DNA of 57,126 bases, taken from Rhodocyclaceae bacterium. GTDB lineage: Bacteria > Pseudomonadota > Gammaproteobacteria > Burkholderiales > UBA3065. The DNA is taken from NCBI GenBank assembly GCA_018882975.1, contig VEQZ01000001.1, positions 1 through 57,126 of the forward strand, written 5' to 3'. Shown here one piece after another: positions 55,010 through 57,126 of this stretch. The number at the start of each line of letters is the position of its first letter. The first letter of the stretch is position 1. The translations under genes and the position numbers were made by a program. The notes under the pieces are model-generated. The model made no database searches. It saw only the letters and a list, made by a program, of their open reading frames with translations, and was not told where the DNA came from.

Positions 55010-57126
55010 TCAACTCGACTCCGGCTCGGCGGGCGGCGTGCCAACCACGGTGGGCTTGACCGGGTCGTCGACCGGGATGACGCGGAACCAGACGTCGGCC
55101 ACCGTGTGCTGGCGGCCACTGTCGGTCGTGTAGCTCGCCACCAGCCCGATCCAGTTGCCGTGGTCGTAGGTGCTGGACGCCGCGCCCCGCGTCTCGATGG
55201 CGACCACACCCGCCTCCCGCAATGACAACAGTTCGCCAGTCTGGCTCAGGCCATCATGGTTCGAGTCGATCCAGACGCGCAAGCGGTCGAAGACAGCATC
55301 CCGCGAATCGATCACACCATCGCCGTTGCCATCCACCGAGCGCAGGGCCTCGAAGCCGTCGCGGGCGCGGGTGCCGTCGGGCAGCAGGAAAGCCTCGCCA
55401 AACAGCTCGCCGCCATCGTCGATGCCGCCGTTGCCATTGACATCGAGCGCCAGCAGACCGTCGCCGCCGGTGACCCAGCCGGTCTGCACCTCGCGGCCCG
55501 TGGCGTTGAGGTCGAACTGCACGCCATCGCGCACGTGAAGCGTCTCGATGCCATCGCCGTCGAGGTCGAGGACGATCGGCGATGCCTGAAGCGCTGCAGC
55601 CTCAGCGGTGCTGATCAATCTGAGCGCCGTCAACTGCTCGTCAGTAATGGCACTCATCTGCGTAGTGTTCAGGTTGGAGAACGACGCCGTACCAAGGGCG
55701 TGCAACTGGTCCGCGGAAAGACGCTGCAATTGGTTCACAGTAAGCGAGCCCAGATTGGCCGTAAGTCCGGCGATGGCCGCAGTGCTGATCTGCTGCAGGT
55801 CATCGATCTCGATCGCCTGGATCTGGCCCGTGGTGAAGTAACTCAGCGTCGTCGACGTAAGGTCATGGAACTGCGCGGTGGTCAGCGCGGCAATCTGCGC
55901 ATTTGTCAGCGCCCCAACCTGCGACGAGTCCAACGCGGCAATCTGCGCCGAATCGAGCACCTGAAGGTCCTCGAACTGGACGACCCTGATCTGCGCGGTG
56001 GTGAGCGCATGGACTTGGTCCGTGGTGAGGACGTCGTACTGCGTCGTGATCAACGCGATCACTTGAGCGGTGGTCAGCGCCTGAACCTGATCCGTGGTCA
56101 GTGTCGGCACCTGCGTCGCCGTGAGGCTCTGCAGGTCGCCCAACTGAATCGCCTTGATCTGATCCGTGGTGATCGCGGCCAGATTCTGAGTGGACAGGTT
56201 CGCATACTGATCAGCCGTCAGCGCCACGATCTCGGACGTGGTGAGGCTGGCGAACTGCGCCGTGGTGAGCGCGTTGACTACAGCGGTACCCATATGCTCG
56301 ATATCGTTGCCGATCGCCTGAACTTGCTCGGCGGTCAATTTGGGAACCTGGGCAACGGTAAGCGCGCCGATCTGCGAACTGGTCAGCGCGTCGATCTGCG
56401 CCGTCGTCAGCGTCGGGATCTGCGTCGTCGTAAGGGCAACAATCTGCCCGGTGGTGAGCCCGACGATGTCGCGCGTCTCGATGGCACGCAACTGGTCGCT
56501 GCCCAGCACCTGCAGGTCGGCCGTCTCAAAGCCCTTCATCTGCGCTGAAGTGAGCGCGGCGATGTCTGCGGTCTCCAGCGCCTTGACCTGGTCGGATGTC
56601 AGCGCGGCGATCTGCGCCGTGGTCAAGCCCGGCATCTGCGCAGTGGTCAGCGCCGCGATCTGATCGGTGGTGAGTTTGCCGATGCGCGTGTCGCTGATCG
56701 CGGCGATCTGCGACGACGTCAGGCTGGCGAGATCCGCCGTCTGCATCGCCACCAGTTGATCGGTACCGAAAGCTGCCACCTGTGCCGTGGTCAGACCGGG
56801 CATCTGCGCCGTTGTGAGTGCAACCACTTGCGCCGTCCGCAGTGCCGCGATGCTGTCGGTCGACAGCGATGCAAGCCGACTGGTGCTCAAGGCGGCGATC
56901 TGGGTGACGAACAAGGCCCTGATCTCACTGGTATCGAGCGTTGCGAGTTGCCCGCTGGTCAGCACTGCGACGTCTTGCGTCTCGATGAAGCTCAGTTGTG
57001 ATGTGCTCAAGGCGGCAAAGTTGGCGGTAGACATGCCAGCGAACTGCTCGGTCGTCAGGGCCATGACCTGTGACGGGGTCAGCAGGCGGATCTGCGCCGT
57101 ATCCAGCGCGTCGATCTGTGCGGTGG
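55010..57126 (-). CDS. Very large secreted-type repeat protein: octapeptide (LTTxQIxA) array + C-terminal Dx[DN]G[DN]G calcium-binding module (N-terminus beyond right edge)
   Basis: Track ORF 55010..57064. The frame stays open and the repeat continues upstream of that Met to the window edge (...TAQIDALDTAQIRLLTPSQV-MALTTEQ...). The C-terminal ~190 aa read VLDLDGDGIETL...LDVNGNGGIDDGGELFG...VDGNGDGVIDSRDAVFDRLRVWIDSNHDGLSQTGEL, a module common in RTX/T1SS-type exoproteins. Confidence 0.85.
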   Translation of the reverse strand, partial: TAQIDALDTAQIRLLTPSQVMALTTEQFAGMSTANFAALSTSQLSFIETQDVAVLTSGQLATLDTSEIRALFVTQIAALSTSRLASLSTDSIAALRTAQVVALTTAQMPGLTTAQVAAFGTDQLVAMQTADLASLTSSQIAAISDTRIGKLTTDQIAALTTAQMPGLTTAQIAALTSDQVKALETADIAALTSAQMKGFETADLQVLGSDQLRAIETRDIVGLTTGQIVALTTTQIPTLTTAQIDALTSSQIGALTVAQVPKLTAEQVQAIGNDIEHMGTAVVNALTTAQFASLTTSEIVALTADQYANLSTQNLAAITTDQIKAIQLGDLQSLTATQVPTLTTDQVQALTTAQVIALITTQYDVLTTDQVHALTTAQIRVVQFEDLQVLDSAQIAALDSSQVGALTNAQIAALTTAQFHDLTSTTLSYFTTGQIQAIEIDDLQQISTAAIAGLTANLGSLTVNQLQRLSADQLHALGTASFSNLNTTQMSAITDEQLTALRLISTAEAAALQASPIVLDLDGDGIETLHVRDGVQFDLNATGREVQTGWVTGGDGLLALDVNGNGGIDDGGELFGEAFLLPDGTRARDGFEALRSVDGNGDGVIDSRDAVFDRLRVWIDSNHDGLSQTGELLSLREAGVVAIETRGAASSTYDHGNWIGLVASYTTDSGRQHTVADVWFRVIPVDDPVKPTVVGTPPAEPESS
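55586..57126 (-). repeat. 24-bp (8-codon) tandem coding repeat array, >60 units in window
   Basis: Register read directly: LTTAQMPG|LTTAQVAA|FGTDQLVA|MQTADLAS|LTSSQIAA|ISDTRIGK|LTTDQIAA|LTTAQMPG|LTTAQIAA|LTSDQVKA|LETADIAA... There is one register break near IGNDIEHMGTAVVNA. Units are degenerate at the DNA level. Confidence 0.9.

Follow-up and report, generated by a model that had tools for sequence, protein, structure and literature searches.

An octapeptide-repeat gene of the ALTTAQ/SPM family at the end of a Rhodocyclaceae contig: a predicted helical-screw array followed by an SPM-like calcium-binding module

We analyzed a 57,126-nucleotide stretch of DNA from a Rhodocyclaceae bacterium (contig VEQZ01000001.1 of GenBank assembly GCA_018882975.1, positions 1 to 57,126; hereafter the window), the far end of which carries, on the minus strand, an open reading frame (ORF) for a protein consisting largely of tandem eight-residue repeats (octads). 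This protein is a new member of a catalogued family, that of the Pfam models PF20080 ('ALTTAQ repeat') and PF26745 ('SPM'), for which we found no published study in the literature that we searched. The best overall explanation, and one that we consider probable, is that the window holds the C-terminal part of an ALTTAQ/SPM giant, in which a rod predicted to be a helical screw is followed by an SPM-like Ca2+-binding domain, and which would be exported as a fibre by type I secretion.

Results

The octad array and its truncated gene

The reading frame encodes 704 residues plus a stop codon (55010-57124, with the stop codon at 55010-55012) and is still open at the end of the window, which places the N-terminus of the ALTTAQ/SPM gene beyond the contig end. 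We take the window to be an entire contig, one that ends inside the array, as is typical of assembly breaks; the assembly has truncated the gene, and the ATG at 57064 is not its start codon. Identity autocorrelation over residues 1-515 was 0.27-0.33 at lags of 8, 16, 24, 32 and 40 as compared with 0.04-0.11 at other lags, and a profile-based dynamic-programming parse divided the array into 63 units, 61 of them convincing; the long run of tandem octapeptides that had been claimed in an earlier, sequence-only reading of this DNA is therefore real. Over the 63 parsed units the consensus is T (38) or S (10), A (24) or D, S or T, Q (42) or D, I, L or V, any residue, A (34), L (47) or I, and T (32) or S. 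By these position-wise counts the array units carry the A-L-T-T-A-Q motif in tandem, and the consensus T-A-Q-I-A-A-L-T corresponds to L-T-T-A-Q-I-A-A in the register used in the earlier reading. That reading had also reported a single register slip; we recovered the slip, as a 7-residue unit at residues 273-279, but it is not the only one, there being a second 7-residue unit at residues 448-454 (Table 1).

Threonine and serine together make up ~24% of the array residues. At the DNA level the array units have a mean pairwise identity of 50%, and the tandem repeat program TRF reported just four short 24-bp arrays; because the units are this diverged in DNA and the TRF arrays are so few, we take the array to be old and selected at the protein level rather than a product of recent slippage.

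Family membership and distribution

A Pfam scan assigned the repeat protein to PF20080 (ALTTAQ_rpt) with 320.4 bits and an E-value of 7.5e-98 spread over 19 stretches, the gathering threshold of this model being 26.4 bits. The architecture that had been described as unrecognised is thus represented by a Pfam model, and hundreds of proteins in the databases have it as well. The same scan found no RTX (HemolysinCabind, PF00353; E<=1), Ig-like or VCBS domain in the protein, in agreement with the earlier statement that the array contains none of these, and NCBIfam had no match to it. A search of 5.8 billion proteins returned 699 homologues; nearly all of the 120 homologues listed had the PF20080 plus PF26745 architecture, and the closest relatives among the matches listed were 44-46% identical to the window protein. 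With HMMER, 1.84 billion representatives clustered at 50% identity gave 1,560 matches with E-values of 1e-3 or less (640 at 1e-10 or less), many of these representatives being 2,000-5,500 residues long.

In GTDB, with one genome per species, we found relatives at no fewer than 575 loci, at least, mostly in Burkholderiales, with carriers in Duganella, Roseateles, Aquabacterium, Rubrivivax, Rhodoferax, Undibacterium, Massilia and Sphaerotilus/Leptothrix. According to the sequence-only reading, placement of the repeat in a characterised family of known structure and function would overturn its claim of an unrecognised architecture: a family model does exist, but the literature that we searched, which included no paper naming 'ALTTAQ', gave no described function, and no solved structure of a natural member matched. 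Among viral predicted structures, a single one matched the repeat model at E<=1e-3, the 753-residue protein A0A6J7X2V1 of an uncultured Caudovirales phage in BFVD (E=3.5e-5, 30% identity over 118 columns), and its units may resemble those of the ALTTAQ repeat.

Predicted fold of the array

AlphaFold2 (AF2) modelled all 704 residues with a mean pLDDT of 87.8 from a 68-row alignment, and residues 65-192 alone with a pLDDT of 96.5 and a pTM of 0.86, the latter model having 16 helices, each 5-6 residues long, for its 16 octads. The array is predicted from these models to wind into a thin, rigid alpha-helical screw. In the predicted unit, a helix of 5-6 residues lies on T-A-Q-I-A-A and is followed by a two-residue L-T linker, with the first T of the TT dyad modelled as the N-cap and Q as N3; the predicted helices merge at 7-residue units and at places that lack the TT dyad (residues 265-277, 376-389 and 448-460). 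A Thr...Gln capping box would thus start each six-residue helix, and the packed Ile and Leu residues would form an uninterrupted core.

When the PDB was searched by sequence, residues 67-177 matched HeliScrew4 (9ZEM) with an E-value of 1.4e-14. HeliScrew4 is a de novo designed 8-mer alpha-helical screw with a crystal structure at 2.2 Å, which was presented as a novel 'dark-matter' super-secondary structure with a core of apolar side chains and S/T/D/N as N-caps, and for which only one natural PDB example, 7QLR, was reported (10.64898/2025.12.04.691947). Foldseek searches of the PDB with the repeat model gave nothing at E<=1e-3, the weak matches being to alpha-solenoids (best TM 0.42, to mesothelin; PP2A was also among them), with 7QLR a weak match at rank 43 (E=0.07) and 9ZEM not among the matches. 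Two remarks in the sequence-only reading hold up against the model, namely that the S/T-x-x-Q pattern resembles an N-capping box, a logic shared with the HeliScrew design, and that the hydrophobic spacing fits neither a coiled coil nor a beta-helix, short-helix units being what AF2 predicts. A coiled-coil reading of the array was also considered by us and rejected.

A different fold is suggested by a Pfam match of the whole protein to LRR_EndoS (E=9.1e-9; 36 bits against a 27.9-bit cutoff) and by low-scoring hits, at the sequence level, to LRRTM and to variable lymphocyte receptors (E=3e-4 to 8e-3), which would make the array an alpha/beta solenoid resembling leucine-rich repeats (LRRs), with three octads to each 24-residue LRR. 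However, none of the individual stretches passes in Pfam, AF2 placed no beta strand anywhere in the array (pLDDT >90), the autocorrelation is equal at lags 8, 16, 24 and 32 as expected of a true period of 8, the asparagine ladder is absent, and Foldseek returned no LRR structure. We regard an LRR-like solenoid as very improbable, and rejected an LRR identity given a period of 8 rather than 20-30, no predicted strands and no passing stretch.

The earlier reading had also raised, as speculation, an analogy to ice-nucleation proteins, the sole points for which are the 8-residue period and the abundance of T, S and Q. Models of the ice-nucleation repeats are beta-solenoids (16-residue, 8+8). The window array, on the other hand, matched no ice-nucleation family in Pfam and is predicted to be all-alpha, with Thr modelled in helix capping rather than arrayed on a flat beta face, and we find it scarcely credible that the protein acts at the surface in ice nucleation or ice binding.

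The C-terminal SPM-like module

Downstream of the array, residues 516-678 matched FrpC's self-processing module (SPM) (6SJW/6SJX; FrpC residues 415-591) with an E-value of 2.8e-35, and Foldseek aligned the AF2 model to the same entries with a target-normalised TM of 0.81 and a probability of 1.00, this being a comparison of a prediction with an NMR structure. The corresponding Pfam family in the precomputed annotations of the homologues, PF26745, is itself named 'SPM'. The domain has three EF-hand-like loops, a DxDxDG site, a Trp550/Trp618 pair and an invariant Asp677. The sequence-only reading had recognised a D-x-D-G-D-G calcium-binding region as the only familiar module in the protein; this region is indeed present (residues 520-525), but it is part of something more specific than a generic calcium-binding segment, namely a homologue of the FrpC SPM. 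By column conservation, the family shows no or almost no variation at the mapped residues of the four EF-hand-like Ca2+ sites (Table 1), in the Trp pair and at D677. An exception is FrpC D478, part of the fifth Ca site, which is Glu in the window and mostly Ser or Thr in the family.

The residue that differs most consequentially is the nucleophile of FrpC, D414, which is Ser515 in the window. The position ahead of the invariant Pro was occupied in the family by Thr or Ser, and never by Asp, in 68 of 68 rows of our alignment A1, in 60 of 60 motif matches there and in 90 of 90 genomic copies. In FrpC, 'clip-and-link' is driven by an anhydride that arises when the carboxylate of D414 attacks the carbonyl of the same residue (PMC7078468). 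Because the catalytic Asp is replaced by Ser or Thr throughout, Asp-anhydride chemistry of the FrpC type cannot operate in this family, and the module either is a Ca2+ folding switch only or uses other chemistry. We also rejected an RTX identity for the protein, there being no PF00353 match at E<=1; with the defining Asp-Pro missing and no RTX repeats, we file the protein as SPM-like and not as a clip-and-link RTX protein.

Other chemistry could take the form of cleavage at or next to the Ser/Thr-Pro by a hydroxyl N-to-O acyl shift, which would release the rod or attach it covalently. Ser/Thr-initiated autoproteolysis occurs in other protein families, the whole SPM scaffold is conserved together with the Ca sites, Pro516 and Asp677, and the presence of Ser or Thr before the Pro in every sequence examined suggests selection for a hydroxyl. 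The FrpC mechanism, however, requires an Asp carboxylate that attacks its own carbonyl, attack by a Ser or Thr hydroxyl would by our reasoning require a strained four-membered ring, and the D478 equivalent is mostly Ser or Thr in the family; we are doubtful that the module works in this way.

The tail that follows the module in the window protein is the shortest in alignment A1, in which 100-170 residues is typical, although the close relative L011 has a tail of 26 residues. As to copy number, a metagenomic protein of 861 residues (P0001) has two octad-array-plus-SPM units in tandem, and two ALTTAQ-SPM genes lie within ~20 kb of each other in several genomes (those with loci L016, L018, L040, L042, L053, L063 and L082).

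Giant relatives and secretion genes

Relatives whose neighbouring GT41 glycosyltransferase gene (described below) most resembles that of the window are giants in which the octads begin at about residue 5. Relatives of this size include proteins of 3,067 (L028, which starts MTWIASLTTDQIAGL), 3,445 (L025) and at least 4,222 residues (L011), of 4,776 residues in a metagenome-assembled genome of Burkholderiaceae (L086), and, in Pseudomonas, of at least 2,233 (L007), 2,123 (L084, Pseudomonas syringae, GCA_024413225.1) and 6,283 residues (L085, Pseudomonas sp. J452). Over 80 genome loci the median length ahead of the SPM was ~2,000 residues. By analogy with these relatives, the window protein is probably a giant of thousands of residues. 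The Pseudomonas homologues (L007, L084 and L085) also extend the family beyond Betaproteobacteria; they have a distinct tail of ~100 residues after the SPM (…NVYNDG.IQLLVA…), followed by genes for a GT41 enzyme and for an outer membrane efflux protein (OEP), a membrane fusion protein (MFP) and an ATP-binding cassette (ABC) transporter.

In about 22 of 83 loci, among them L003, L007, L028, L084 and L085, type I secretion genes for an ABC transporter, a HlyD/AprE-type MFP and an OEP occurred within 10 kb. ABC transporters of the L003 type have at their N-terminus a C39-like domain whose catalytic Cys is exchanged for Thr, like the substrate-binding domain of HlyB-type transporters. The relatives begin directly with octads and have no obvious Sec signal.

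Neighbouring genes and the glycosylation question

The next gene downstream of the repeat gene encodes a fusion of tetratricopeptide repeats (TPR), a glycosyltransferase family 41 (GT41) domain, the family of O-GlcNAc transferase (OGT), and a GT4 domain (Table 1). Residues 52-583 of this protein match XcOGT with an E-value of 8.7e-98 and human OGT with an E-value of 1.6e-76, and residues 757-920 are WaaG-like. It is followed by genes for a Methyltransf_24 protein, a 458-residue protein and an FkbM-type methyltransferase, counterparts of which are also found in L046, L058 and L074, at a distance of 5-9 kb from the ALTTAQ-SPM gene; these three genes (48814..51722) possibly belong to a glycan-modification cluster. 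The 458-residue protein may have a C-terminal TPR, and a hint of an O-fucosyltransferase (O-FucT) domain in it was sub-threshold (E=0.04) and was not used. NCBIfam gave nothing useful for the genes downstream of the repeat gene. Elsewhere in the window, on the plus strand at 15399-17405, a single ORF has both EPSP synthase (aroA) and cytidylate kinase (cmk) domains, an apparent gene fusion.

A GT41 catalytic domain was encoded within 10 kb in 31 of 80 loci, and of the 69 loci that had at least 3 kb of downstream flank, 19 had GT41 as the gene that came next on that strand. The association also held in the reverse direction: starting from three GT41 homologues in long contigs, we found a giant ALTTAQ-[ST]P-SPM gene directly upstream of all three. 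In L003 (5298-8924 and 12510-14651), a C39-like domain is also present at the N-terminus of the GT41 protein and is 51% identical to that of the adjacent secretion ABC transporter, which suggests that the GT41 enzyme and the transporter recognise the same substrate. No bacterial protein substrate was found for XcOGT (Clarke et al. 2008, PMC2556091), and our search of the literature for GT41 together with type I secretion gave nothing relevant. The XcOGT gene of Xanthomonas campestris (L087, 7643-11707) lies among housekeeping genes, in the order hemA-prfA-OGT, and overlaps the end of prfA.

Table 1. Features of the window and residues of the SPM-like module aligned with FrpC
Feature	Position in window	Strand	Basis
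ALTTAQ-repeat/SPM ORF, C-terminal 704 codons plus stop	55010..57126	minus	translation, PF20080, SPM homology
Octad array, ~61 units, residues 1-503, consensus T-A-Q-I-A-A-L-T	55616..57126	minus	periodicity, profile parse
7-residue unit NDIEHMG, residues 273-279, register slip	56288..56308	minus	parse; inside predicted helix 265-277
7-residue unit TAAIAGL, residues 448-454, second register slip	55763..55783	minus	parse; inside predicted helix 448-460
Ser515-Pro516 junction, site of the FrpC scissile Asp414-Pro415	55577..55582	minus	alignment
SPM-like Ca2+-binding domain, residues 516-680	55085..55579	minus	homology to 6SJW, Foldseek
Pro-rich C-terminal tail, 24 residues plus stop	55010..55084	minus	alignment A1
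D520/D522/D524/G525 (FrpC D419/D421/D423/G424)			alignment
W550 (FrpC W451)			alignment
EF-hand D561-E573 (FrpC D462-E474)			alignment
EF-hand D598-D610, with D609/610 in the Ca2+ site (FrpC D499-D511)			alignment
W618 (FrpC W519)			alignment
EF-hand D620-E631 (FrpC D521-E532)			alignment
D677 (FrpC D579)			alignment
TPR + GT41 (O-GlcNAc-transferase family) + GT4 fusion, 1010 residues, next gene downstream	51844..54876	minus	Pfam
Methyltransf_24	51027-51722	minus	Pfam
458-residue protein without family assignment, between the methyltransferase genes	49748-51124	minus	
FkbM-type methyltransferase	48814-49608	minus	Pfam

Discussion

If the window protein is, as we think probable, the end of a giant exported rod, its path out of the cell might be as follows. 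The repeat protein would be kept unfolded or partly folded in the cytoplasm, where the adjacent TPR-GT41(-GT4) enzyme, together with the methyltransferases, might O-glycosylate the Thr/Ser-rich repeats before export, a step in which we have lower confidence than in the others. A type I secretion system would then export the protein C-terminus-first; the SPM-like domain would fold on meeting extracellular Ca2+ and nucleate or ratchet the extraction of the rod; and the product would be a long, thin extracellular fibre, adhesin or matrix protein.

Several observations weigh against this scheme. The fold is a prediction, and no natural PDB structure matched the repeat. Within the window, no type I secretion gene is found in the 55 kb downstream, the upstream side lying beyond the contig. 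The 24-residue tail, compared with 100-170 residues in most relatives, means that the usual C-terminal secretion signal may be absent or atypical, and NCBIfam found no secretion-target domain in relatives, including those with tails of the Pseudomonas type. As regards glycosylation, ~60% of the loci have no GT41 gene within 10 kb, and proteins that have a GT41 gene next to theirs do not differ in Thr plus Ser content from those that have none (Thr alone is 17.3% in the GT41-linked proteins as compared with 14.0%). The hydroxyl of the N-cap Thr is needed for capping, and glycosylation there would clash with the predicted fold. Canonical XcOGT, finally, is not linked to an ALTTAQ gene; because it has no such neighbour, the link that we describe concerns a different GT41 subclade.

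The same neighbouring genes can be read in another way, in which the array in vivo carries heavy O-glycosylation and forms an extended mucin-like stalk, as in the serine-rich repeat adhesins, and the screw is only the in silico behaviour of the unmodified sequence. A Thr plus Ser content of ~24% would suit a stalk of this kind, OGT-type enzymes act on extended peptides, and the GT41-GT4 and methyltransferase genes are directly downstream in an adjacency that is conserved. However, nearly every unit has a hydrophobic I, L or V together with L, and Ala at the helix positions, which points to a packed core and not to a disordered stalk; the crystal structure of a designed protein that shares this pattern is a helical screw; and ~60% of family loci have no GT41 gene nearby. 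We therefore think a mucin-like stalk unlikely.

Taking the fold, the enzyme and the module together, we can also put forward a more tentative and more encompassing reading, which seems to us possible without being the likelier outcome. The ALTTAQ-SPM giants would be at once natural helical screws and the native substrates of a clade of bacterial OGT homologues, with the TT dyads in hundreds of octads O-glycosylated in the cytoplasm, with the enzyme and the ABC transporter sharing C39-like recognition in some lineages, and with type I export of a product that is locked by a Ser/Thr-Pro variant of the SPM using chemistry other than that of FrpC.

The family is of interest for several reasons. 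It is a natural family with a sequence logic near-identical to that of HeliScrew, comprising 1,560 clusters at 50% identity and proteins of up to ~6,000 residues, and its existence qualifies the claim that structure predictors found the screw fold outside their training distribution; it also provides natural sequences for structural work. An SPM homologue in which the Asp is always Ser or Thr is a natural test of the scaffold without the anhydride chemistry, and this is relevant to the SPM-based NeissLock tools. The conserved ALTTAQ-GT41 gene pair provides a concrete candidate substrate for a clade related to XcOGT.

Comparison with known systems

Within the PF20080/PF26745 family the window protein is typical in having an octad array followed by an SPM, an [ST]-P junction and a Burkholderiales-type host, but it differs in the unusual shortness of its tail after the SPM (24 residues) and in the fusion of its neighbouring GT41 to GT4, a fusion otherwise found only in metagenome relatives that are 88-91% identical. 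With HeliScrew4 the array shares the 8-residue period, the S/T N-cap, a core of I/V/F plus L, and Ala at the helix positions; the HeliScrew4 unit (S/T)-P-E-Q-I-A-A-L can be set beside the window unit T-(T)-A-Q-I-A-A-L, and AF2 predicts the same pattern of helices and linkers for the array. HeliScrew4, however, is a designed protein of 120 residues with Pro at N1 and charged surface residues, whereas in the natural repeat N1 is Thr, there is almost no charge, and the length is hundreds to thousands of residues.

The C-terminal module is homologous to the SPM of FrpC and ApxIVA (6SJW/6SJX) over ~165 residues; common to both are the EF-hand-like loops and the DxDxDG site, as well as the Trp-Trp pair, the Pro that is invariant and the equivalent of D579. 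It differs in that the nucleophilic Asp414 is Ser in the window (Thr or Ser in the family) and D478 is Glu, and in that it stands at the extreme C-terminus, whereas the FrpC module is internal and precedes the RTX nonapeptide blocks. The neighbouring enzyme resembles XcOGT and human OGT in its TPR and GT41 catalytic domain, and differs from them in its additional C-terminal GT4 domain.

LapA, SiiE and MpIBP are giant repeat adhesins secreted by type I systems. The ALTTAQ-SPM proteins are comparable to these in having giant members, no obvious Sec signal, Ca2+-dependent C-terminal domains and nearby genes for ABC, MFP and outer membrane proteins. They differ in that we saw neither an RTX block nor a retention module at the N-terminus, and in the construction of the rod, which in LapA, SiiE and MpIBP consists of Ig-like beta domains of ~100 residues and in the ALTTAQ-SPM proteins would be built from alpha-helical units of eight.

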